Source: a virus
Taxonomy: Duplodnaviria; Caudoviricetes
Virus record (IMG/VR): IMGVR_UViG_3300001525_000272
Coordinates: 1 to 64,000 of that record
Length of the DNA stretch: 64,000 bases
Reading direction: 5' to 3' (one strand)
Shown: positions 6,485 to 43,375 of the stretch, one piece after another
Layout: every line of letters begins with the position of its first letter
How positions within the stretch are numbered: position 1 is the first letter of the stretch
Translations under genes and position numbers: made by a program
Notes under the pieces: model-generated
What the model was told of the DNA's origin: nothing
Database searches by the model: none
What the model saw: the letters and a program-made list of their open reading frames with translations, nothing else

Positions 6485-7360
6485 ATGAAATCTATCTGTA
6501 TTGTTGTTATTGGTCGGAATGATATAGCTCACTTAAATAGAAGTCTTGTTACTGCTGCAAAACAATGCGAATCAATTGGTGAACATTGTCGTGTATTATA
6601 TGCGGATGATGCATCAGATGATGGATCTGCAGATTTTGCTGAAGCAATAGCTGTAAAACATCCAAGTATTAGTATATACAAATCACCAATTCAAAGAAAT
6701 ATTGGTGGTATTCGTAATGCAGCAGTAGCTTATCTATCTTCATTGGGTGATAAATCACCAGATTATATATGGTTACATGATTCCGATGATTTTATTACTG
6801 ATAATGCTTTATCCAGGGTACTTGATGCATTGGAAAAGAATAATTATCCAGATGGGTTATCTGTTCCCATTTATACAATGAGAAATCCAAAAGCTCAAAT
6901 TCCAGATTGTTCTGTAATAATGAAATCTATTGAAGATGCTCCAATGGGACCAGTTGGAGAATGGTCTATTGTGTTTCGTAGACCTCTTTATGTTCCAAAT
7001 CCAGAAAATCAAGCATGTGAAGATGCTCCGTGGCATTATGAACAGTTTGATAGATTTTCTACTTGGGGAAAAGTAGAAGGTCCAGAACCCTGTTATATAT
7101 GGGATTGTACAAATCCAAATGCAATAACAAGAACTGTTGAATATTGTTCAAATCATTCATTCACAATTCTTGCAGCTGCTTGTGAAAATGTTCTCATTAA
7201 TGCCAATAAGAATGATCGTTGGGTATCAGATAATCTTAGAAATATTGCAAACATGTATGATGTTCGTAATCGAATTACAAAACCCAATGTTCGTGCTGCA
7301 TGGTTGGCAAGATTTAAAACAGAAGTTTTGAATTTTAGTAGTGGCTTTCATGTTCATTGA
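6485..7360 (+). CDS. GT-A fold (family 2-like) glycosyltransferase
   Basis: N-terminal ICIVVIGRN, YADDASDDGS, RNIGGIRNAAV and WLHDSDD (DxD) match the GT2 nucleotide-sugar binding pattern. Confidence 0.8.
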   Translation: MKSICIVVIGRNDIAHLNRSLVTAAKQCESIGEHCRVLYADDASDDGSADFAEAIAVKHPSISIYKSPIQRNIGGIRNAAVAYLSSLGDKSPDYIWLHDSDDFITDNALSRVLDALEKNNYPDGLSVPIYTMRNPKAQIPDCSVIMKSIEDAPMGPVGEWSIVFRRPLYVPNPENQACEDAPWHYEQFDRFSTWGKVEGPEPCYIWDCTNPNAITRTVEYCSNHSFTILAAACENVLINANKNDRWVSDNLRNIANMYDVRNRITKPNVRAAWLARFKTEVLNFSSGFHVH

Positions 7361-17597: not shown

Positions 17598-19367
17598 ATG
17601 CCTATTAAAGCATCAAATTTTCCAAAAATAACTAATGCCGGTACAGTAAAAAATACATTTGATTATGAATTTATAGCTCCAGCAAAAGCATCCAACTATA
17701 AGGTTACTGTAAAATATGGTACTCTCATGGTTATTAAAGCTCGAAATTATTGGATAAATAAACCAGAAATTAGTTATAAAATAATCGATGAAATTTTCTG
17801 GAAAGTATTTCCAAAACCAAGATTTGGAAATCCGGTAATTACAAATTCCGCCAATAATCGTGTTGGAATTGAAGTTCCAACTACAGATAATTATTATGAT
17901 TCTCTACTTGATTTTTATAATTGTGATTATTATGATGGTAAAGTTATTGATGGTATAATTATTAATGCTGATACTAAAACAGAATATCCCGGAACTACAT
18001 TCCAACTTACAAATGATACAATTTCAGATGATCCAACAATTCCTTTTGATGTTTATTGTAATTTTAAATTAAAACTACCAGAATCAATTCGTAATTGGAT
18101 AATAACTAATAATGAATCAATTAGATTATTTGTACAACCAACAATTAATTTAACTTGTACAGATTCTTATGTTACACCAGTATCTAATAATAGTGGTGTA
18201 ACAGTCAGTGATTCTTTTGTTACAACCAATAGTCGACTTCACAGTTTGATTACATCAGATTCAGAATTACTTATTAATAGTAAAACCGCTATTCCAACAT
18301 CTAATCAGATTGAATTTAAATTAAAAAATTCACCATCAGTTAAAAGTATCGGTCTCGGTTCTGTGCAAAATACAGATGCATATTTTACAACAAGTGATAT
18401 TACTGAAAAGATTAATGGTGTAAAGACGGTTACAGGAAAAATTATAAAAGGTTATAATAAAGATTATAAGACTAATGTATTAGATAAGTTAAGTAGCTAT
18501 ACTCTTGCCATACCAAATAATATTGGTGGTGTTCCTGTAAAAAGAATAGCAGATGAAGCATTTCGATATAATACCAAAATAAAATCCATTATATTTCCGT
18601 ATGGTTTGGAATTTATTGGTAGTCTTGCTTTTAATGAATGTACAGGTTTGGTTGGTGATATTTATATACCATCTACTGTTACTCAAATTCATCATTGTTG
18701 TTTTAGAAACACCAATTTGTCTAATGTATATATTTTGGGTCAATCATTTTTAAAATATGGGTATGAAGGTGAATATGGTTTAAGTCACTTCCCATTTAGA
18801 ACAGAAAAAAAGGTTAATTTCAGAAATATAACTTTGCATTTTAATGATGATATTTTAAATAGACCATATACATCACCATCCGGTACTAAATATAATACAT
18901 ATAAAGATTTTGTATTTAAAGTATCTGGATGTACCCAATATGGTGTAGCCGGTAGTACAAAAACTAATACTATAATAAAAAATGATTATCAATTTCGGAA
19001 TGTACATATTAAATCCAAAGCAACTATTAATAATTATAATTTAACTTTAAAAGCTAATTATCAAAAAACATTTCTTAAATATAGTGATTATGATGTTAGT
19101 TTATTACGTACTAAAGAAAAGACTAAACCAACAACTATAAACTTGGATTTTTGTGTTAGTGGGGAAACTTGTATATACGATTTAAATAATGATTATAAAG
19201 TAGATTCAACTGAACTCAGTTTGGCAGATAATATTATAAATAATAGATTTAGCGGCGAATCTTATGATTATATATACTATCTTCAAAATAGACTTTTACA
19301 ATGTAGCGAAAATCGTAATATGACTGAAGCATACAATAACCTAAAGAAAATAGTAGGATATCAATAA
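17598..19367 (+). CDS. Continuation of the giant adhesin: second half of an MBG-type Ig domain, BspA-type LRR, dockerin/EF-hand-like motif
   Basis: Begins ...KITNAGTVKNTFDYEF...SNYKVTVKYGTLMV (C-half of an MBG repeat). IPNNIGGVPVKRIADEAF...IIFPYGLEFIGSLAFNEC...IPSTVTQI is LRR_5/BspA-like. DLNNDYKVDSTEL near the C-terminus. Confidence 0.65.
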   Translation: MPIKASNFPKITNAGTVKNTFDYEFIAPAKASNYKVTVKYGTLMVIKARNYWINKPEISYKIIDEIFWKVFPKPRFGNPVITNSANNRVGIEVPTTDNYYDSLLDFYNCDYYDGKVIDGIIINADTKTEYPGTTFQLTNDTISDDPTIPFDVYCNFKLKLPESIRNWIITNNESIRLFVQPTINLTCTDSYVTPVSNNSGVTVSDSFVTTNSRLHSLITSDSELLINSKTAIPTSNQIEFKLKNSPSVKSIGLGSVQNTDAYFTTSDITEKINGVKTVTGKIIKGYNKDYKTNVLDKLSSYTLAIPNNIGGVPVKRIADEAFRYNTKIKSIIFPYGLEFIGSLAFNECTGLVGDIYIPSTVTQIHHCCFRNTNLSNVYILGQSFLKYGYEGEYGLSHFPFRTEKKVNFRNITLHFNDDILNRPYTSPSGTKYNTYKDFVFKVSGCTQYGVAGSTKTNTIIKNDYQFRNVHIKSKATINNYNLTLKANYQKTFLKYSDYDVSLLRTKEKTKPTTINLDFCVSGETCIYDLNNDYKVDSTELSLADNIINNRFSGESYDYIYYLQNRLLQCSENRNMTEAYNNLKKIVGYQ

Positions 19368-19467: not shown

Positions 19468-21198
19468 ATGAAGCAAACCATTAAAATTAGTGAAAATTTT
19501 AGTAATAAACTTAGAGAGGGTGTTTCATCTGATCTTAAAGGTTATGTAGAAGTTGATGTTAAGAATATTAAGACTGGTGAGATTGAACATACAGAAAATC
19601 ATAACTTGATTGTTTATGGTGGTCGTGAATGGCTTCTCAAGAAAATGTTTGGTGGATTAATTAGCGATAACGAGAAAGCTACGAAAGGAATAATCAAATG
19701 GGTTGGTTTTGGAAGTGGTGGCGGAGAACCCGGAAATCCATTACAAACTGGATCTACAGTGGGTTCTGATGATGATCTTTATCAACCAGTTAGAATTAGA
19801 TTTGATTCTGACAATGTTTTGACTCAGAAGGGTTCTTATGCTTCAAGAATTCTTTCTGATGGATCAATTGTTCCGGGTTACTTTAAGAAGATTAGTAGTG
19901 TTACTCTTAAAGAAGATCATGCCAATCCATATGTTCAGGATAATGTAACTAAGTATCCTTCTCTTATTGCTGAACTTAGAATTGAATTATCATCTGATGA
20001 TTGTAATGGTGTCAATTATACAGATGATGGTAAATTGATTCCTTATCAGGATATTAATGAAATTGCATTGTTTATTGCAGATCCTGATGTTGATGATCCG
20101 GGTCAAAGTACTGAATATGATGAACTTTATTTGGATTTGAATAATTCAACTAATAAAACATTTGTACCCGGCACAATCCATGATAATGATGTAACGTATA
20201 ATGCTACAACCAGAATAAGAACAGTTGAAGCACCAATAGAAGATAATGCCTGGAGATTTCAAATTCAGATTACTAATAAGGCTTCTGGTATATTGGAATG
20301 GAAAGATGTAGATGAATATGCTGTTCCATTCAATAATTCATATACTGATCCTGATGATGAAACCAAATGGAAATCATTAATGGTAAAAGAAGTAACCACT
20401 GATGATGGTACTGGTAGAATTCTCAATTATAGTATTGATGGTGGTTTATCTTGGACTGATAATATAAATGGTCACTGGAAGTATACATTTCTTGAAGATG
20501 AAAGTGTTGCAACCAATGCCATACGTCTTTATCCCTGTGGAAAATATCTCATAGAATTTGAGAATAAAGTTCCGGATGTAGATCCAACTAGTGTTTATTA
20601 TGAACTTCAATATAGAAACTATTATAATGACCCCTGGAAAGTTATAAAGGGTGAGATGTTTGATAGTAAAGGTAAAACCGATTACATTACTTTGTATTGT
20701 GAATCAGTAGATGGTATCAGTGGAGGTAATAGATATCCACTTTCTGATTGTACCAGACTTAGTATGTTTAGAGTAAAAGAAACAACTAACACTGAAGGTG
20801 ATGTAACAATTAATTCCATGGAACCCGATAGTGTTTCTTATGATGTAAGATGTTATGTTTCTCAAAGTGAAGTATCAAAATTAAAAGTTGGTAATCTTGT
20901 TTATACCCCAGTAACTTCTGAATTTGGTGATAACTCAATTCCACAATCATCACCATTATTGATTACTGAAGTATATAATCCAGAAGTAGTTTCTCCTGAG
21001 ACAGCAACTTCTCATATTCCATATTTTGTGATAGAAAGACAGGGATCTGTAAGCGCTACTTATACTCCAGGAAAGATTATGAAGACTTATAGTCCTTCAA
21101 AAGAAAAACCGTATACGATGTTTAGTAGGGTATGTATATCCAGTTTAAGAAAAAGTGCAGAGCGCGAGATAGTTATTGTTTATAAGATATACGTATAA
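19468..21198 (+). CDS. Baseplate/tail-fibre attachment protein with a large internal insertion
   Basis: NHNLIVYGGREWL...WVGFGSGG...INEIALF and terminal MFSRVC...K...IVYKIY are the two halves of a fold common in myophage baseplate/fibre-base proteins. Confidence 0.55.
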   Translation: MKQTIKISENFSNKLREGVSSDLKGYVEVDVKNIKTGEIEHTENHNLIVYGGREWLLKKMFGGLISDNEKATKGIIKWVGFGSGGGEPGNPLQTGSTVGSDDDLYQPVRIRFDSDNVLTQKGSYASRILSDGSIVPGYFKKISSVTLKEDHANPYVQDNVTKYPSLIAELRIELSSDDCNGVNYTDDGKLIPYQDINEIALFIADPDVDDPGQSTEYDELYLDLNNSTNKTFVPGTIHDNDVTYNATTRIRTVEAPIEDNAWRFQIQITNKASGILEWKDVDEYAVPFNNSYTDPDDETKWKSLMVKEVTTDDGTGRILNYSIDGGLSWTDNINGHWKYTFLEDESVATNAIRLYPCGKYLIEFENKVPDVDPTSVYYELQYRNYYNDPWKVIKGEMFDSKGKTDYITLYCESVDGISGGNRYPLSDCTRLSMFRVKETTNTEGDVTINSMEPDSVSYDVRCYVSQSEVSKLKVGNLVYTPVTSEFGDNSIPQSSPLLITEVYNPEVVSPETATSHIPYFVIERQGSVSATYTPGKIMKTYSPSKEKPYTMFSRVCISSLRKSAEREIVIVYKIYV

Positions 21199-21218
21199 TT
21201 ATATCTTTCGTATTGTAC

Positions 21219-21265
21219 TAATTGTTCCTCTAAAGATTAAATTAAAATCTTTAGAGGAACAATTA
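21219..21265 (+). promoter_or_regulatory. 20-bp perfect hairpin occluding the RBS of the homing endonuclease gene
   Basis: Arms 21219-21238 (taattgttcctctaaagatt) and 21246-21265 (aatctttagaggaacaatta) are exact reverse complements with a 7-nt loop. The 3' arm contains GAGG 12-15 nt before ATG 21269. Confidence 0.7.
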
Positions 21266-21268
21266 TAC

Positions 21269-23317
21269 ATGAAAATTACATATCAAGAATTTATAGAAAT
21301 CAAAAAGAAATTTAATGGTCATCCAAATGCCTTTCTGTATTGGTTGAAAAAGAATTATACAGATCTTTATAACGAAATAATGAGTTATGGTGATTTTTAT
21401 AAGATAAGAAAACCAGATTTTAGTAATAAAATCGTTTGGTATTTTTTAAATATCCAAGATTATCCATTATGTAGTGTATGTGGGAAACAGATTACAATGT
21501 TACCTCGTATATCACAATTAGAAAACTATATAAAAAACCCAGAAATTATTAATTTGTGCAAAAGTCATTTCTATAGTAGTGATTATTATCAAAATAAAAT
21601 GAAACATATCTACTTAGAAAAATTCGGGGTAGATAATCCAAATAAACTTCAAAGTGTAAAAGATAAAGTTAAAAAAACTCTACATGAACATTTTGGTGAA
21701 GAAGGTTTTAAAAATCAAATAATAAGAGATAAGAAAAGAAATACTTGTTTGGAAAGATACGGAGTAGAATATTCTGCCCAAAGTTCAATAACAAAAAGTA
21801 AGATTAAAGAAACTTTTAATGAGAAATATAATGGTCATCCATTACGAATTCAAGAGTTTAAAGATAAAGTAAGACAAACATCTTTACAACACTTTGGTAC
21901 AGAACATTGGATGAAAAACAAAAGTATTATTGATAAAATAAAATCAACAACAAAATTGCATTATGGTTGTGAAAGTTATTTTCAAACAGATGAAGGTAAA
22001 AAACGATTAAAAGAAACCATGTTAGAAAAATATGGTGTTTCTAATATATCACAATCAGAAGAAAATAAACAAAAAATTAAACAGAGGAGTTTAGAACGAT
22101 TTGGTACAGAATCTCCATTCCAATCAGAAATAGTAAAAGATAAAATTAAACAATCTCTTCAAATTAAATATGGAGTAGATAATCCATCTCAAAATCCAGA
22201 AATTCATAAAAAACAAGTAGATTCAATATGTAAAGTAAAACGACATAATTCATATTTAAGTATGATAAATGATGATTCTAATGATGTTAAATTAATATCA
22301 TCAGAAGATGATTTTCATAAGTATTTTAATGGTGATATTGATCTGTTAAAATGGAAATGTAAACGTTGCGGAAATGAATTCTATTCAAGACGAGATACTA
22401 ATTTAGATGGTTTTGCGAGATGTTTTATATGTTACCCATATGAATCATCACATTCAGAGACAGATGTTTACAATTTCATAAAAGAATTAGATTCTGATAT
22501 TACTCGTCACAGAAGAGATATTATTAAAGGAAGAGAATTAGATATCTTTAGTTCAGCTAAAAATATAGCTATTGAATATAATGGGTTATATTGGCATTCT
22601 TCTGCGACTAATACAAATCCAAAATACCATTTAAAGAAAACTCAAGAATGTGAAGCAAAAGATATTCAGTTGATTCATATTTTTGAAGATGAATGGTTAT
22701 TCAAAAAAGACATTGTGGTGTCTCGATTATCAAACTTGTTTGGAAAATACTCTAATATTGTATATGCTAGAAATTGTATGATCAAAGAAATTACACACCA
22801 AGAATCTAAAATATTTCTTGAAATGAATCATATTCAGGGTGATTGTAAAAGTAAATATAATATTGGTTTGTTTTTCAATAATGAACTGATTTCTTTAATG
22901 ACTTTTGGACCTTACAGAAAAGCTCTTGGAAGAAGTAAAGTTGAAAATGAATATGAACTTCTTCGTTTTTGTAATAAGATTGGATATCACATTCCCGGTG
23001 CTGCTTCAAAATTACTTACGTATTTTGAAAGAACTTACAAACCCAATAAACTTATTTCATATGCAGATAGAAGATGGAGTAAAGGAAAATTATATAAAGC
23101 TCTTGGATTTCAATTCATTAGATATACGGATCCGAATTATTTCTATATAATCGGACATAAAAGAGAAAACAGATTCAAATGGAGAAAATCAGAATTGCCA
23201 AAATTACTAAGTGATGTAGATATGTCTTTGTCAGAAGAAAAAATCATGTATAATCACGGTTACTTCAAAATATATGACTGTGGAAATTATCTATTCGAAA
23301 AGACGTATAAATTATAA
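21269..23317 (+). CDS. Free-standing Hef-like homing endonuclease (helical repeats, Zn ribbon, PD-(D/E)xK, GNAT/Mom-like C-terminus)
   Basis: About nine ~23-aa K.K.T.xE(K/R)(Y/F)G repeats; CKRCG...CFICYP zinc ribbon; ELDIF...IAIEYNGLYWHS nuclease motif; ELLRFC...GAASKLL...ISYADRRWS.G.LY..LGF GNAT-like domain. Start moved to ATG 21269 because of the GAGG RBS. Confidence 0.8.
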   Translation: MKITYQEFIEIKKKFNGHPNAFLYWLKKNYTDLYNEIMSYGDFYKIRKPDFSNKIVWYFLNIQDYPLCSVCGKQITMLPRISQLENYIKNPEIINLCKSHFYSSDYYQNKMKHIYLEKFGVDNPNKLQSVKDKVKKTLHEHFGEEGFKNQIIRDKKRNTCLERYGVEYSAQSSITKSKIKETFNEKYNGHPLRIQEFKDKVRQTSLQHFGTEHWMKNKSIIDKIKSTTKLHYGCESYFQTDEGKKRLKETMLEKYGVSNISQSEENKQKIKQRSLERFGTESPFQSEIVKDKIKQSLQIKYGVDNPSQNPEIHKKQVDSICKVKRHNSYLSMINDDSNDVKLISSEDDFHKYFNGDIDLLKWKCKRCGNEFYSRRDTNLDGFARCFICYPYESSHSETDVYNFIKELDSDITRHRRDIIKGRELDIFSSAKNIAIEYNGLYWHSSATNTNPKYHLKKTQECEAKDIQLIHIFEDEWLFKKDIVVSRLSNLFGKYSNIVYARNCMIKEITHQESKIFLEMNHIQGDCKSKYNIGLFFNNELISLMTFGPYRKALGRSKVENEYELLRFCNKIGYHIPGAASKLLTYFERTYKPNKLISYADRRWSKGKLYKALGFQFIRYTDPNYFYIIGHKRENRFKWRKSELPKLLSDVDMSLSEEKIMYNHGYFKIYDCGNYLFEKTYKL

Positions 23318-24676: not shown

Positions 24677-26458
24677 ATGATTATAGATCAACTTAATAAT
24701 GATCAAGCTTATCAGCTTAGTGAGTATTTTAAGTGCAAAAATGATCTGATTTATTTTATAGAACATTGGGCTATGTTGCCTACTGCTGGTGGCGATGATC
24801 ACATCAAATTATATGATTTACAAAAGAAATATCTTCATCATATTCTTGAAAACCATCATACTATTATTTGTAAATCTCGTCAAGTTGGTGCATCTACAAT
24901 GAATCAATTTTTGTATGCTTGGATATGTACATTTTATGAAAATGTTGTTATTGGAGTAGTATCTCGTTCTGGTTCAGAATCAACTGATTTTGCTCGTAAA
25001 GTAATGGATATATTAGATAAGTTACCCAGTTGGTTAAGACCTGAATTTACTAAAAGAACAGAACAATCCTTCATTCTTAAAAATGGTTGTAAATTATATA
25101 CTGCAGCAATAAATCCATCTAATCCATCAAACTTATTAAGAGGTAAATCTCTGCATTGCCTCACAATAGATGAGTGTAGTTTTATTCCTTCAATCGACGT
25201 AGGAGCTGCTGCTATAATGCCAGCACTGTCAAAAGCGCAAAAAGACGCACGAGAAAGAGGTATCCCATACTGTACTACTATAATATCAACACCAAATAGA
25301 ACTACAGGTATCGGAAAATACTATTTCAATATGTGGAAAGATGCCATCAATGGTAATAGTATTTATAAACCATTCCAGATGTGGTGGAAAGATATTCCAG
25401 AATTTGCTGATGATCCGAACTGGTACAAAGAACAATGTGCTTTATTGGGAAATGTAAAATGGCGTATAGCACAAGAACTTGATTTACAATTTGTTGCTTC
25501 ATCAAATTCATTCTTTGATGCTGATATTATATCAAAGCTTAATACTATTGATGTTAAACCAATTTCAATTACTACTATTAATGGTCATGATCTTAAACAT
25601 TTTGCTGTACCGGACAAAAATAGATTCTATCTTATTGGTATAGATACAGCATCAAATTATGGTACAGATAGTTCTACTATTTGGGTTATGGATTATGAAA
25701 CCGGAGAACAAGTAGCAGAATTCCAATCCAAACTTAGAGTTGATGAATTTTGTCCCATTATCGAACAAGTATGTAAGATATTTCCAAATAACTTACTGAT
25801 TCCAGAATGTAACTCTTATGGTAATCAGGTATGTGAATACTTGACAAGAAAAGGCATCTATAATATCTATCAAACCAAATCAAAGAATAATGTTATTGGT
25901 TCTTCAAAAGGTAGTAAATATAGATATGGTTTATATACCAATCCAATGAATAGACCATTAATCATTGATGCTCTTTATACTGTAGTTTCAGAATCAATTG
26001 AGTGTGTCAAATCTGTTAATACAGCGCTTGAATTAGTATCATTGATTGATGATGGAAACGGAAAAGTTGCTGCTGATGAAGGTGAACATGATGACTTAGT
26101 AATGGCTTTTGCATTCTGTTGTTATGTTCGTCTGTATGATCCACCAAAAACACTTCTTTCAAAAACTTCAACTAAAGAAGAAAGAGAAACTATTGATGAT
26201 GTTGTTAATTGGAATAATGATGAAAATGGATTAGTCAATATAGCTCCAGAATTATCAAAAATGTATGATGAAGCCAATGAAGTTGATGATCCAATTAAAA
26301 AACAACAATTGTTAAATAAATCATATAGAAAATTTATTAGTACTAATTTTGATAGACTTATGGAACAAAGTGCTGATCAAAGATTAGACACACCACAAGG
26401 TTCGTATATCAATCTTATTGATATAATGAATGGTAAAAGAAATACTAGTTATTTCTAA
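24677..26458 (+). CDS. terL: Terminase large subunit (T4 gp17-like)
   Basis: ICKSRQVGAST (Walker A), LLRGKSLHCLTIDECSFI (Walker B), IISTPN, IGIDTA, EQVAEF, LLIPECNSYG, HDDLVMAFA nuclease motifs. Confidence 0.93.
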   Translation: MIIDQLNNDQAYQLSEYFKCKNDLIYFIEHWAMLPTAGGDDHIKLYDLQKKYLHHILENHHTIICKSRQVGASTMNQFLYAWICTFYENVVIGVVSRSGSESTDFARKVMDILDKLPSWLRPEFTKRTEQSFILKNGCKLYTAAINPSNPSNLLRGKSLHCLTIDECSFIPSIDVGAAAIMPALSKAQKDARERGIPYCTTIISTPNRTTGIGKYYFNMWKDAINGNSIYKPFQMWWKDIPEFADDPNWYKEQCALLGNVKWRIAQELDLQFVASSNSFFDADIISKLNTIDVKPISITTINGHDLKHFAVPDKNRFYLIGIDTASNYGTDSSTIWVMDYETGEQVAEFQSKLRVDEFCPIIEQVCKIFPNNLLIPECNSYGNQVCEYLTRKGIYNIYQTKSKNNVIGSSKGSKYRYGLYTNPMNRPLIIDALYTVVSESIECVKSVNTALELVSLIDDGNGKVAADEGEHDDLVMAFAFCCYVRLYDPPKTLLSKTSTKEERETIDDVVNWNNDENGLVNIAPELSKMYDEANEVDDPIKKQQLLNKSYRKFISTNFDRLMEQSADQRLDTPQGSYINLIDIMNGKRNTSYF

Positions 26459-38292: not shown

Positions 38293-38757
38293 TTATTGTT
38301 CTCCCCAAACAGAACTCATTTCTGATTCTTTATCAGGAACCATATTAGAACCAAGATTTTTCATAAAAATACTCAATGGTGTCTTGTTCTGTTCTCCTTG
38401 AATAGATAATACAACATCTACTGTTGCTGTTTTATTACTCATTTGAATGTTTACATTACTAACTTTAACCCTGGATTCAAATCTCTCAATTCTATCTTTT
38501 ACTTCATATTTGATTTCTTCTTCTGTTACACTATCAGCCATTTCAAATAACTTTTTATATAACAAAGATCCATAATTTGGATCAAATGGATATTGACCCA
38601 ATGGAGTCATAAGAAGATTTCTTATAGATGTAATAATGGCATCCTTACCAGTTACTTCTTTCCAATCACCATTTTGATCAATAACTGGATAAATATCTTT
38701 AGCGATATTGTATGTAGCAATTCGCTTTGTTTCAAACTTCTTATATTCGTTAGACAT
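38293..38757 (-). CDS. Baseplate wedge / sheath initiator (T4 gp25-like)
   Basis: DAIITSIRNLLMTPLGQYPFDPNYGSLLYKKLFE...IERFESRV.V..V is the gp25/GPW signature. Start MSNEY at 38757. Confidence 0.9.
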   Translation of the reverse strand: MSNEYKKFETKRIATYNIAKDIYPVIDQNGDWKEVTGKDAIITSIRNLLMTPLGQYPFDPNYGSLLYKKLFEMADSVTEEEIKYEVKDRIERFESRVKVSNVNIQMSNKTATVDVVLSIQGEQNKTPLSIFMKNLGSNMVPDKESEMSSVWGEQ

Positions 38758-38826: not shown

Positions 38827-38870
38827 GAGTTGTCATTTTACAACCACTTCCTATTGTAAAATGACAACTC
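38827..38870 (-). terminator. Hairpin, probable terminator
   Basis: 17-bp perfect inverted repeat gagttgtcattttacaa / ttgtaaaatgacaactc with a 10-nt loop, downstream of the chaperone extension. Confidence 0.65.
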
Positions 38871-38931: not shown

Positions 38932-39141
38932 TCATTTAATACCTTGAATAGCCTTTTGTTGTGTATCATACTTATCTCTATCATATTTGGTTTTCCATTT
39001 GATATAAGATTTTACTTCATCAACAGGCATTCTTACTACATCTATATAAGAACTTTTTGAAAGTTCCATACATAAAAAAATAGTTTCTTTAAGACTTTCT
39101 CGGTATTTTAATACACTTTTCTCATTGGTACAATGCGCGAA
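38932..39141 (-). CDS. +1-frame extension of the tail chaperone (gp51-like / lambda gpT-like), not in the ORF track
   Basis: The +1 frame reads FAHCTNEKSVLKYRESLKETIFLCMELSKSSYIDVVRMPVDEVKSYIKWKTKYDRDKYDTQQKAIQGIK*. It resembles the E.IF.L......S..DI..MP..E...Y motif of chaperone extensions, and has no ATG/GTG/TTG before the conserved part. Confidence 0.65.
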   Translation of the reverse strand, partial: FAHCTNEKSVLKYRESLKETIFLCMELSKSSYIDVVRMPVDEVKSYIKWKTKYDRDKYDTQQKAIQGIK

Positions 39142-39973
39142 AAAACTGAGAAGTGAAATCTAATTCTACGTCCCGCTTGTCTTTACATTCAGAATTTTGA
39201 CAAATTACTGTAGCGACTGTTCTAACATTATATTTGAGAAATTCATCAGCATAGACTTTATTAATCAATTTGGCATCATCCGGAGGAATAGAATTCCAAG
39301 CAAGTCTGATATTATCTTTTTGCTTGTATTCATCACCATTTGGTTTATCCTTAGTAGGATCTTGATAGAATCTATCAACCATACTAAGATTTTTCCTCTT
39401 TCCTTTATCTTCATCAGTTGCAAATAAATCATATTCACTATATTCTATCTCATCCTTTATAGTTGGTGCTTTAAGAACACAGTGAACACCATCAAATTCT
39501 TTAAGATCTACAACTTTTCTATATGAGATAATATCTCCGCGTTTAGTTCCTTTTTCAGAATCAATTACTTCATCAGGATTCCAAAAAGTACCCTTGAGAG
39601 CTTTATCAATATCTATAGTAACAGTATTTGTATGACCGCATTTTTCACATATAACTTCATATACGTGCATATTTTTATATGTAGTAGCATAGAGACCATA
39701 TATTAAAGCATCTCTATCCTTTAAAGTAGTATTTTCAATGAAATCATCAAATGTTTTAATGTTTTCTGGTTTTTTTACAAGACAACCCCACAATACTTCA
39801 GAAAGATGTTTGGGAAAACTAGAAGGTGTAATCAAACTTCCTTTCAGATTATCCTCATCAGCAATGGACATTGATCTAACAGTATACTTTTTATTTCCTT
39901 GTGGAGTAATAACTTCATATTCAGGAAGTTTAATACCAAACCCACTAAATACTTCAATACCAGCTTTATTCAT
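39122..39973 (-). CDS. Baseplate hub assembly / tail assembly chaperone (T4 gp26-like)
   Basis: YEVITP.G...YTVRSMSIADE..L, DRDALIYGLY.TTY, CEKC and CQNSEC Zn pairs; directly after the tail tube gene. Confidence 0.75.
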   Translation of the reverse strand: MNKAGIEVFSGFGIKLPEYEVITPQGNKKYTVRSMSIADEDNLKGSLITPSSFPKHLSEVLWGCLVKKPENIKTFDDFIENTTLKDRDALIYGLYATTYKNMHVYEVICEKCGHTNTVTIDIDKALKGTFWNPDEVIDSEKGTKRGDIISYRKVVDLKEFDGVHCVLKAPTIKDEIEYSEYDLFATDEDKGKRKNLSMVDRFYQDPTKDKPNGDEYKQKDNIRLAWNSIPPDDAKLINKVYADEFLKYNVRTVATVICQNSECKDKRDVELDFTSQFFRALYQ

Positions 39974-40125: not shown

Positions 40126-40848
40126 TTACGGGAAATCCTGAGACGCGTTACCGCTACTTCTAACTTCCTGAAGTTTCTTGGAATAAGAATCAGATAATGT
40201 TCTAGCTTTATCATAAACCCAGCTTTCATGATAAACAAAGTCAACATTGAATTCTATATCCATTTCCAGTTTATCTACAGATGCTACATCACTCTGGAAG
40301 AGATCCTGTGGATCTTTAAGCGGGAATACACCAGAATAACAAGCAGCGTATTCTATCGTCTTTCCATCCGGTTTAGTAGTCCAGTAAAGAACAGATGCTG
40401 AATATTCATTCTTATGTGTTGCTAATTCATTAGCATTATCAGTAGTACCCGTTTTATTATCACGGATATACTTAACCCAGCTATGAATAACAGAAAATAC
40501 TGGAAGATACTGGAATTCAAGAAATTTACAAGAGAATGAAGTGGTGTAGTCAACACTAGTAGGAACACTCCATTTAGTACCACCAAGACCTTGAATTTCT
40601 GTTTTGTTTAAAGTACCACCGGGAGGTGTTACTGATAAACAACACACATCAAGAACAGAAGGAACATCATCTGGCCCCTTCAACTTAGTAGAAGTAATCA
40701 ATCCTTTTATTGTATCGAAATATATTGATTTATTAGGCATGAACCATTTAGTAAAATGGTAGCCTGTAAGATATGGATCTGCAACAAGGTTATTTGCGGT
40801 ACCACCGTAGTTTCTTCCCGTTGCATTGAACATGCTAGCAAAACCCAT
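40126..40848 (-). CDS. Tail tube protein
   Basis: SVTPPGGTL.K.E..GLGG.KWSVPT.VDY...FS..F.E...W...YSGVFP...D.F.SD.....K.E.DIEF.VD tube fold; follows the sheath gene. Confidence 0.8.
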   Translation of the reverse strand: MGFASMFNATGRNYGGTANNLVADPYLTGYHFTKWFMPNKSIYFDTIKGLITSTKLKGPDDVPSVLDVCCLSVTPPGGTLNKTEIQGLGGTKWSVPTSVDYTTSFSCKFLEFQYLPVFSVIHSWVKYIRDNKTGTTDNANELATHKNEYSASVLYWTTKPDGKTIEYAACYSGVFPLKDPQDLFQSDVASVDKLEMDIEFNVDFVYHESWVYDKARTLSDSYSKKLQEVRSSGNASQDFP

Positions 40849-40930: not shown

Positions 40931-43375
40931 TTATTGGATGTAAAGATTGAGCATAATCTTTTCAATAACCTTCATAGGCTGAAGCATTACGTTTACGTGA
41001 CAAGTCTTAGTCTTGAACTCGTAATCTGTTGCTCCAACTTCAACACTGAAAGACTTGAGACCTCTTTCTGCCTGAACAGATTGCAAGAAAGGAACAATAC
41101 CCTGTTTGATTCTATCATGAGTTTCTTGATCATTAAACTCAAAGATATAATACTTACAGAATTGCTCAATTGCTCTCTTACAATAAAGAACTGTTCTTAC
41201 ACAGTTAAGATCAGAAAGTGCGGTTGTCTTCTTCTGAGTAGTCAATTGACCCCAAACAGTCATACCTTCAGGGAAGTGAACAATTGGGTTAACTTGAGCA
41301 AGATACAAACGATCTCTCTCGCCCTTATTAGCACTCCAACGAAGTTCCTTAATTTCAGAACTTATACCTCTATTATAACCAGCAGCTGCATACCAAACAT
41401 TATACAATGCATCACTAGTAGGAATAAGCTTTGCCATAGTATAAACTGGTGACATCCAGTTATCACAACCAAGGAACTTATCATACACCCTTGTATAAGG
41501 TTCATATCTTGCACAATAGAAGGAGTTCCAGATTCTGCAATCTTTCGCGCCCTTTACTGCACCAGTATACTTCTCAACATCCTCACAATCACTGTTATCA
41601 CCACAGTCAGAAATGAGAACGCAATCCAATCTGGTTTCTACAAGTTCTTTTGCTGCTTGTTTGACATCTGGTTTATAACCAGCATCATAAACAATAGTAA
41701 AGTAGATCCAATCAAGATCGAGAACGTCATTGGCGTACTGAATCTTATATGTGACTGTACCAGTTGATTCATCAACTCTTCTCAATACAACCGGTTTCTT
41801 AAGAAGACCAGTATAAGCAAGAGCAAGAGTCTGATTAGCAATCATTGGTTGAGTGACTTTAGTGCCATTCTTGATTGTAACCATACCACCCATTGAACCC
41901 TTATTGAGATAATAAGGTTGCTCACCAATAGTAATATCATTACTATCAGTAAGAGACATAAGACTCATATTGATAGCAGTTTCATACTCTTCTTGAGCAG
42001 CATCAACAAGTTCTTGAGCTACAGTACAAAGACCAATTGCTCTATCAATAGCTTCATCTCTACTGAGTTGCTTTGCATCTGAATAACCATCAACTTTAAT
42101 AGGATCTGTTTCATCATCTTCGTCCATATCAACAGCAGCATTATATGCAGCATTGGCTTCAGCCATTGCTTCTTTTGCTACTGCTTTATCGAAGTATGCA
42201 TTCCAGATAGCCTTGGCTTTTGTACCAAGTTCATAACCAGCAGGAAGATATTTAATACCTTCTTCATAATCACCACTTGCTGATTTCTCTATCAATCTGG
42301 TACCAACATAGACACCGGGTTTTTCTCTTATAGTATCAGTTTCATCTTCGCCGATATAATCAGGAATCCAAGAATAACCAGTATTTTCATCAATGGTTGG
42401 GAATCCTTTATCGATTACATAATCCGGTTGAGATTCTTCAATAGTAGGATCATTCTTATAGAATTCAGCAAGGAACGAATTGTATCTTGCCAAAGCATCA
42501 GGGTTTACCTGAACCTGAATATTGGTTGAGAATCCATTAATTACATCTTCAATGTAATTACTCTCACCTTCAAGATCAGTTGATTCTGGATCAAATGAAA
42601 TGTTATAGCTTTCAACCATAACCGGAGATCCATCCTGATCTTCATAAAGCTCAAAGTTATAAAGACCAAAATTGGAAGGATTGCTATCAGCTCTCAGAAT
42701 GAAACTATAACGATCATAATAATCACCACGACCAAAACCTCTTACATAGAAAAGAACTGATTTATTATAATCACCTTCTTTTTCCATATAAGCATTACCA
42801 TCAGTAAGAGCATAAACCTGACCAGACTGAGCAGAAGTGAACATCGCGTCAAGCTTCTGAGTATTAGTCATATCAAGATACTTCAAACCTTCGGTTGTAG
42901 AATCTACAATTGTGGGTTGGAATTTCTTATAGCATGAGAATGTAGTAAGACCAATAGCTGAACCAACCTTGGTATCAACTGCTTCTGAAGGAGCACTACC
43001 CTCATCTACATCACTCGCATTATCAGAACTACTATCAACAGAAGTTGCTGTTAATGGAGCATTTACAAAACATACATAAGTATGAGAATAAGTTGCATCA
43101 TCAGGAAGAGCTCTCATTACAAAGAGATCTGATGAAACAGAAAGATGCTGTAAAGCAACATACGGACCCTGACCATAATATTTGCCAAAGGTTCTGATAT
43201 TTGGATCACCAAACTTAGTGCGATATTCTTCAATACTACTGATTCTCGTGAGTACGTTATCAGGACCTTTTTCTGTGATGACTGGTACAAAACCAATAGT
43301 TCCTGAAGTTGAAGTGAGATACTCTGAAAGATCAATGATCTTGGAATATACACCAGGCGAAATTGCACTTGCCAT
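40931..43375 (-). CDS. Contractile tail sheath protein
   Basis: ISPGVYSKIIDLS, EKGPDN.LT.I.S..EY...FG.P, WYAAAGYNRG, RDRLYLAQVNPI..FP.G..VWGQ.T, LSDLN..RTVLY..RAI, Y.FEFND..T. Confidence 0.93.
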   Translation of the reverse strand: MASAISPGVYSKIIDLSEYLTSTSGTIGFVPVITEKGPDNVLTRISSIEEYRTKFGDPNIRTFGKYYGQGPYVALQHLSVSSDLFVMRALPDDATYSHTYVCFVNAPLTATSVDSSSDNASDVDEGSAPSEAVDTKVGSAIGLTTFSCYKKFQPTIVDSTTEGLKYLDMTNTQKLDAMFTSAQSGQVYALTDGNAYMEKEGDYNKSVLFYVRGFGRGDYYDRYSFILRADSNPSNFGLYNFELYEDQDGSPVMVESYNISFDPESTDLEGESNYIEDVINGFSTNIQVQVNPDALARYNSFLAEFYKNDPTIEESQPDYVIDKGFPTIDENTGYSWIPDYIGEDETDTIREKPGVYVGTRLIEKSASGDYEEGIKYLPAGYELGTKAKAIWNAYFDKAVAKEAMAEANAAYNAAVDMDEDDETDPIKVDGYSDAKQLSRDEAIDRAIGLCTVAQELVDAAQEEYETAINMSLMSLTDSNDITIGEQPYYLNKGSMGGMVTIKNGTKVTQPMIANQTLALAYTGLLKKPVVLRRVDESTGTVTYKIQYANDVLDLDWIYFTIVYDAGYKPDVKQAAKELVETRLDCVLISDCGDNSDCEDVEKYTGAVKGAKDCRIWNSFYCARYEPYTRVYDKFLGCDNWMSPVYTMAKLIPTSDALYNVWYAAAGYNRGISSEIKELRWSANKGERDRLYLAQVNPIVHFPEGMTVWGQLTTQKKTTALSDLNCVRTVLYCKRAIEQFCKYYIFEFNDQETHDRIKQGIVPFLQSVQAERGLKSFSVEVGATDYEFKTKTCHVNVMLQPMKVIEKIMLNLYIQ

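Follow-up and report, generated by a model that had tools for sequence, protein, structure and literature searches.

A probable +1 programmed ribosomal frameshift, conserved among relatives, in the gp26-like gene of an uncultured giant phage

The window analysed here is a stretch of 64,000 nucleotides, positions 1 to 64,000 of the IMG/VR record IMGVR_UViG_3300001525_000272 (Duplodnaviria; Caudoviricetes), which is an 86-kb fragment (about 27% complete) from an uncultured giant phage. The region of interest lies entirely on the minus strand and carries genes for the tail sheath and tail tube, a gp26-like gene whose 3' end is overlapped by a small frame, a gp25-like gene and, after the latter, a gp6-like gene. 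The features to which the text refers are as follows.

40931-43375, minus strand: tail sheath gene, upstream of the tail tube gene.
40126-40848, minus strand: tail tube gene, directly upstream of the gp26-like gene; matches phrog_45 and structural-protein phrogs.
39973-39122, minus strand: gp26-like gene (frame 0), 283 aa; PF12322 T4_baseplate / phrog_150 baseplate hub.
39122-39162, minus strand: the sole stretch in which a shift could join the frames, from the +1-frame TAG (39162-39160) to the frame-0 TGA (39124-39122).
39137-39145, minus strand: predicted shift site TTT_TTT_CGC, the second TTT being 39142-39140.
38932-39138, minus strand: predicted +1-frame extension, 68 codons plus the TGA stop; AHCTNEKSVLKYRESLKETIFLCMELSK...
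39067-39069, minus strand: internal ATG of the +1 frame, within the conserved IFLCMELS, near the end of the first predicted helix of the extension.
38293-38757, minus strand: gp25-like baseplate wedge / sheath initiator gene, the next gene downstream of the gp26-like gene.

The tube gene of a relative gives a faint match to PF23849, and no tape measure gene was recognised near the gp26-like gene. Between the extension stop and the gp25-like gene lies a perfect 17-nt inverted repeat (GAGTTGTCATTTTACAA / TTGTAAAATGACAACTC; window 38827-38870), followed by TATATATGGGAAC. Elsewhere in the window, a 713-aa open reading frame on the plus strand (21176-23317) has strong homing/HNH endonuclease matches (phrog_3339, E 1.7e-135), with the large terminase gene (24677-26458) immediately downstream of it. 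The nearest named relatives are the AR9/PBS1-type Bacillus jumbo phages, which provide the only matches to the main protein in the named-phage collection (21% identity); the same collection contains no DNA match to the locus and, by tblastn, no match to the extension.

The gp26-like gene ends CAG TTT TTT CGC GCA TTG TAC CAA TGA, so that its product terminates in QFFRALYQ (C-terminus ..DFTSQFFRALYQ); position, sequence and strand of the gene end and the site are as described in the first-pass annotation, a reading of the DNA by a model without database searches. The same reading had the +1 frame closed just upstream and devoid of a start before its conserved residues, which proved accurate: the TAG at 39162-39160 precedes a frame that starts to be open at 39159 and is closed by the TGA (38934-38932), 75 codons from stop to stop, and the only ATG, GTG or TTG of this frame in the window is the ATG at 39069, from which a protein of 45 aa would begin. 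A slip at 39142-39140 would add the 68-aa extension that had been proposed and yield a predicted product of 346 aa, 63 residues longer than the 283-aa form, with the junction ..SQFFAHCTNEK.. (junction peptide ..DFTSQFFAHCTNEK; tryptic junction peptide DVELDFTSQFFAHCTNEK). The -1 frame, which had been said to stop after four codons, in fact runs for ten sense codons after the site (SRIVPMRKVY) before it closes in the window, and -1 slippage was set aside.

The 283-aa protein matches PF12322 with a score of 33.4 bits against a cut-off of 24.5, positions 2-219 of the 219 in the profile aligning with residues 17-279, and also matches phrog_150 ('baseplate hub'). The PF12322 assignment was confirmed at the level of the genome as well. 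Two cysteine pairs (C109, C112 and C258, C263) are invariant among gp26-like homologues, as are F277 and F278. In the AlphaFold model (pLDDT 90.3), for which the 283-aa protein and the extension were treated as two separate parts, the two phenylalanines lie in a C-terminal helix (residues 273-282). A comparison of the fold of residues 3-103 with 48,161 solved chains gave as best matches YqbN (PDB code 3klu; Z 7.1), the HK97 tail assembly chaperone (2ob9; Z 7.1) and 3fgx (Z 6.2), where a Z below 8 can reflect a common arrangement and 7.1 is middling. ORF12 of the lactococcal phage p2 (3d8l) stands further down the same list; we take both it and YqbN to be tail assembly chaperones. As the Z values are middling, these matches are treated as support, not proof, for an N-terminal domain of the tail assembly chaperone type. 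Foldseek found no match to the gp26-like model in the PDB at E <= 0.001 (2ob9 at E 0.7), and the gp26 profile matched none of the PDB sequences. The earlier designation of the gene as a tail assembly chaperone agrees both with its place after the sheath and tube genes and with its resemblance to the HK97 and YqbN folds.

For comparison, 160 loci homologous to this one were drawn from viral contigs and metagenomes, and two close relatives were added. Removal of duplicates left 117 distinct complete junctions, of which 114 had been found by phmmer and were used for detailed tallies, the others being L083, L019 and L096. In 117/117, the counterpart of the small frame lies +1 to the gp26-like gene, whose end it overlaps. 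In 67/114 junctions the +1 frame opens two to three codons before the second Phe codon, with the frame-0 stop five to eight codons after it, so that any joining of the frames is confined to a stretch of about eight codons at Phe-Phe. In the two closest relatives (81-83% identity, independent assemblies) the two-frame arrangement is identical and there is no indel that would fuse the frames, a possibility raised in the first-pass annotation; across the three closest genomes the junction aligns without an indel, and the differences mainly preserve the +1-frame protein. Judged from the sequences compared, the two-frame arrangement is more than chance, because an open frame of 75 codons is improbable at 31% G+C (about 0.2%, an estimate from base composition) and because the frame, the protein sequence and, with the exceptions described below, TTT_C are kept throughout the 117 distinct junctions. 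Counts over the 114 loci overstate independence, since these loci are related to one another; the constraint on the site nevertheless persists when they are clustered at 70% identity (53 clusters) or at 50% (11 clusters).

Conservation of the slippery site, a check that the first-pass annotation had proposed, is evident at synonymous positions. The Phe-Phe dipeptide at the gene end is invariant and is itself a feature of the protein, since T4 gp26 also ends in a Phe-Phe motif (EFFELL). The codon choice within it is a separate matter: the second Phe codon is TTT in 114/114 junctions (111/111 in a separate alignment), whereas at seven other conserved Phe columns TTC is used in 10-41% of the loci (TTT in about 75%). 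Where arginine follows Phe-Phe, its codon is CGN in 111 of 112 cases (109/109 in aligned loci), compared with 24-28% CGN, 72-76% AGA/AGG and almost never CGC at the conserved arginines 33, 87 and 219. Synonymous positions flanking the site are unconstrained. TTT_C is present in 111 of the 114 tallied junctions and also in L083 (2745-3009) and L019 (950-1220), in which the arginine is replaced by leucine (CTC) and glutamine (CAA), respectively, and the +1 extension is kept. Because these two loci retain TTT_C in the absence of arginine, the constraint falls on UUU_C rather than on CGN. The three exceptions (TTT_TTT_A.. or TTC_TTT_T..) keep a TTT_T step, L026 at the second Phe codon and L001 and L024 at the first, so that a UUU_U step is still available. 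L001 (3750-3975, on a 312-kb viral contig) reads TTT_TTT_AGG and has an ATG 1 nt after the gp26 stop; here either an independent start may have replaced the slip or the slip may occur at the first UUU_U.

A run of six T is found at 98/114 loci, and RNA polymerase might slip on it and drop one base in a fraction of the transcripts. Six T is shorter than the runs known for productive transcriptional slippage. Twelve loci read TTC_TTT_C, with only three T in a row, and keep the arrangement, from which it follows that the tetranucleotide UUU_C, and not the six-U run, is what is retained; the C after TTT is constrained and the run length is not. Transcriptional slippage, although known in phages and IS elements (PMC5009743), is therefore very improbable as the explanation. 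The same 12 loci exclude -2 slippage as a general mechanism. Overall, the conservation of the site fits a +1 slip of tRNA-Phe from UUU to UUC and does not fit -1, -2 or transcriptional slippage.

In the window the codon after the site, CGC, is among the rarest in the 33 long open reading frames (11 of 18,708 codons, 0.59 per 1000), a rarity measured in the phage's own genes. A 'hungry' arginine codon is not a general requirement, because relatives use all four CGN codons, or even CUC or CAA, after UUU. In-frame TTT_CGN occurs seven times in the long open reading frames of the window against 3.6 expected, six besides the present site (e.g. in 6485-7360 and 17598-19367), at which a slip would give truncated products; as the motif is not avoided, TTT_CGN alone does not force a high rate of shifting. 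No stimulatory RNA structure was found (local fold z = -1.35), nor was a Shine-Dalgarno-like sequence upstream of the site, and the 86-kb record contains no tRNA gene; the RNA-fold and tRNA results are uninformative because only about 27% of the genome is represented in the record. Slipping may be inefficient, as it is in lambda G/GT, or its efficiency may be set by a context that was not recognised.

The extension is predicted with confidence (pLDDT 92.2) to form three helices (residues 6-27, 31-35 and 39-67). It gave nothing credible against Pfam and PDB sequences, and its model found generic helical matches only among viral structures (Foldseek). Its sequence is conserved as protein across lineages in which the main gene has only 30-40% identity. 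Several of its conserved residues, namely Tyr (92/114), Leu, Asn, Ile and Phe (98/114), all lie upstream of the commonest Met (87/114), and the stretch before this Met appears to be conserved in the manner of coding sequence, as is the rest of the extension: entropy at the three codon positions is 1.26/0.97/1.56 upstream and 1.00/0.60/1.35 downstream. That the +1 frame is functionless, as a decaying remnant or an assembly artefact, is scarcely credible given this conservation, the recurrence of the arrangement in independent assemblies and the confident fold prediction.

The small frame might instead be an independent gene, translated from the internal ATG at 39069, from a non-canonical start or by re-initiation after the gp26 TGA, in which case the two proteins would never be joined. 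Gene callers do annotate such short proteins, many of them starting at profile position 24, and some loci offer suitable starts: besides L001 with its ATG directly after the stop, an ATG lies 5-11 nt ahead of the gp26-like stop in 16 loci, and in 47/114 a canonical start of some kind precedes the conserved part. The annotators of phage AR9 chose a CTG start for a small open reading frame that may be related. Furthermore, no in-frame fusion of a gp26-like body with the extension occurs among the best 150 of 189 profile hits from 1.84 billion representatives, all of which are 123 aa or shorter, and a word search for 'longer' proteins likewise found no natural in-frame fusion. Against this, 67/114 junctions contain no ATG, GTG or TTG between the point where the +1 frame opens and the conserved Tyr, upstream of residues that are conserved and coding, and in the remaining 47 the canonical starts are scattered over positions that are not shared. 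At the position of the internal ATG, Met is replaced by Ile or another residue in 27/114 homologues, and a start there would remove most of the first predicted helix. Independent genes drift among frames, and an independent gene would explain neither the constant +1 frame nor the fixation of TTT_C at synonymous sites. We thus consider independent initiation unlikely, as the first-pass annotation did; the search of the homologues for independent starts revealed none that was consistent.

We conclude that the gp26-like gene probably contains a conserved +1 programmed ribosomal frameshift, in a G/GT-like arrangement within the gp26/gp51 family. The gp26-like gene and the small downstream frame would then be one recoded gene. 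Most ribosomes would read frame 0 to the TGA and produce the 283-aa protein. In a fraction of them, the tRNA-Phe on the second UUU (39142-39140) would re-pair with UUC (39141-39139), one base forward, and translation would resume at GCG (39138-39136); the 68 codons then read in the +1 frame would add a three-helix C-terminal extension and bring the protein to 346 aa. The pair may act in the manner of lambda gpG/gpGT or T4 gp26/gp51, with the chaperone body in excess and the tail of the minor long form contacting another tail or hub component during initiation of the hub and tube. We infer slippage by the ribosome rather than by RNA polymerase, as we do the slip efficiency, the chaperone role and the partner of the extension.

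Frameshifted tail chaperone pairs and +1 shifting at UUU_C sites are both known; what appears to be new is that the two would come together in the giant-phage gp26/gp51 family, for which we found no published report of a frameshift. If the reading is correct, bacterial viruses would make widespread, unannotated use of a +1 site otherwise known from influenza PA-X and the amalgaviruses. Existing annotations of hundreds of giant-phage contigs from metagenomes either miss the extension or call it as a truncated 40-50-aa protein from an internal Met, and recoding would correct them. The proposal would also offer a testable answer to the role of gp26 and gp51 and to the question of why T4-like phages seemed to be without a chaperone pair of the G/GT type. 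Finally, it would add a case with deep conservation to the natural examples of bacterial +1 slippage at UUU_C, and the 117 natural variants could guide a mutational study of +1 efficiency.

The frameshift in lambda gpG/gpGT and in tail assembly chaperone genes was reportedly described by Levin in 1993 and by Xu, Hendrix and Duda in 2004. It is conserved in tail assembly chaperone genes and has been reviewed (PMC5009743). The present locus resembles the lambda pair in that one gene after the tail tube gene is predicted from its sequence to give two products with identical N-termini, in that the downstream frame is startless, overlaps the 3' end and is conserved as protein, with a conserved slippery site a few codons before the stop, and in that the best fold matches of the N-terminal domain (at the middling Z of 7.1) are tail assembly chaperones. 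It differs in the predicted shift, which is +1 at UUU_C instead of -1 at an X_XXY_YYZ heptamer, in the protein, which at 283 aa is far larger, carries a Cys4 motif and additional domains, and is a member of PF12322, and in the gene that comes next, which is gp25-like and not the tape measure gene.

In T4, gp26 and gp51 are listed as hub assembly chaperones (PMC3004832, Table 2). Both (208 and 249 aa, respectively) belong to PF12322, as does the present protein; the C-terminus of gp26 (EFFELL) may be compared with QFFRALYQ, and gene 25 comes directly after gene 26, as the gp25-like gene comes after the gp26-like gene here, the two T4 genes having no small frame between them. The paralogue of gp26, gp51, whose gene neighbours gene 26, matches PF12322 over residues 1-201 and continues with a 48-aa C-terminal tail. 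The resemblance of the extension to gp51, claimed in the first-pass annotation, is weakly borne out (hhalign probability 29%, P 6e-4): the comparison of the gp51 tail with the extension profile gave probabilities of 26-30% and a score of 22, where 30 column shuffles reached at most 19, with a colinear pattern IF .. K .. Y .. IM.M.P.ER. HMMER found no link between the two, and homology between the gp51 tail and the extension is suggestive only. Should it hold, T4 would make its short/long pair from two paralogous genes, where the present clade would use one recoded gene; the short and long forms of T4 come from two separate, divergently transcribed genes without a frameshift. A homologue of gp51 is named 'tape measure protein assembly chaperone' in one GenBank record, and the precomputed Pfam domains of T4 gp51 homologues (P0276-P0279) include PF28602 beside PF12322.

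In the cultured Bacillus phage AR9 (KU878088.1; L002:4771-5073), the gp26-like gene g231 is followed by the small open reading frame g230, annotated with a CTG start. Relative to g231, g230 is in the -1 frame, which runs without a stop over 75 nt of g231 and across CTT_TTT_C; g231/g230 may represent a -1 frameshift in a jumbo phage that is in culture. The extension profile matches g230 weakly (hhalign probability 6%). A broader reading, which we advance tentatively and on which we would not yet rely, is that in T4-like and jumbo myophages the PF12322 proteins serve as tail assembly chaperones and so correspond to lambda G/GT. The short/long pair would be ancestral and recoded on one Phe-Phe run, with a phase and slip direction that depend on the clade (+1 at UUU_C in the present phage and, it seems, -1 in AR9), and would have been resolved into two genes in T4.

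[quoted passage not shown] Yersinia YopN-TyeA provides another +1 site of the UUU_Y type (PMC5009743; PMC5052127). In all of these, as predicted here, tRNA-Phe leaves UUU for the better-matched UUC, and in the window a rare CGC codon comes next. Unlike the influenza and amalgavirus examples, the proposed site lies in a structural-assembly gene of a double-stranded DNA phage in a bacterial host.
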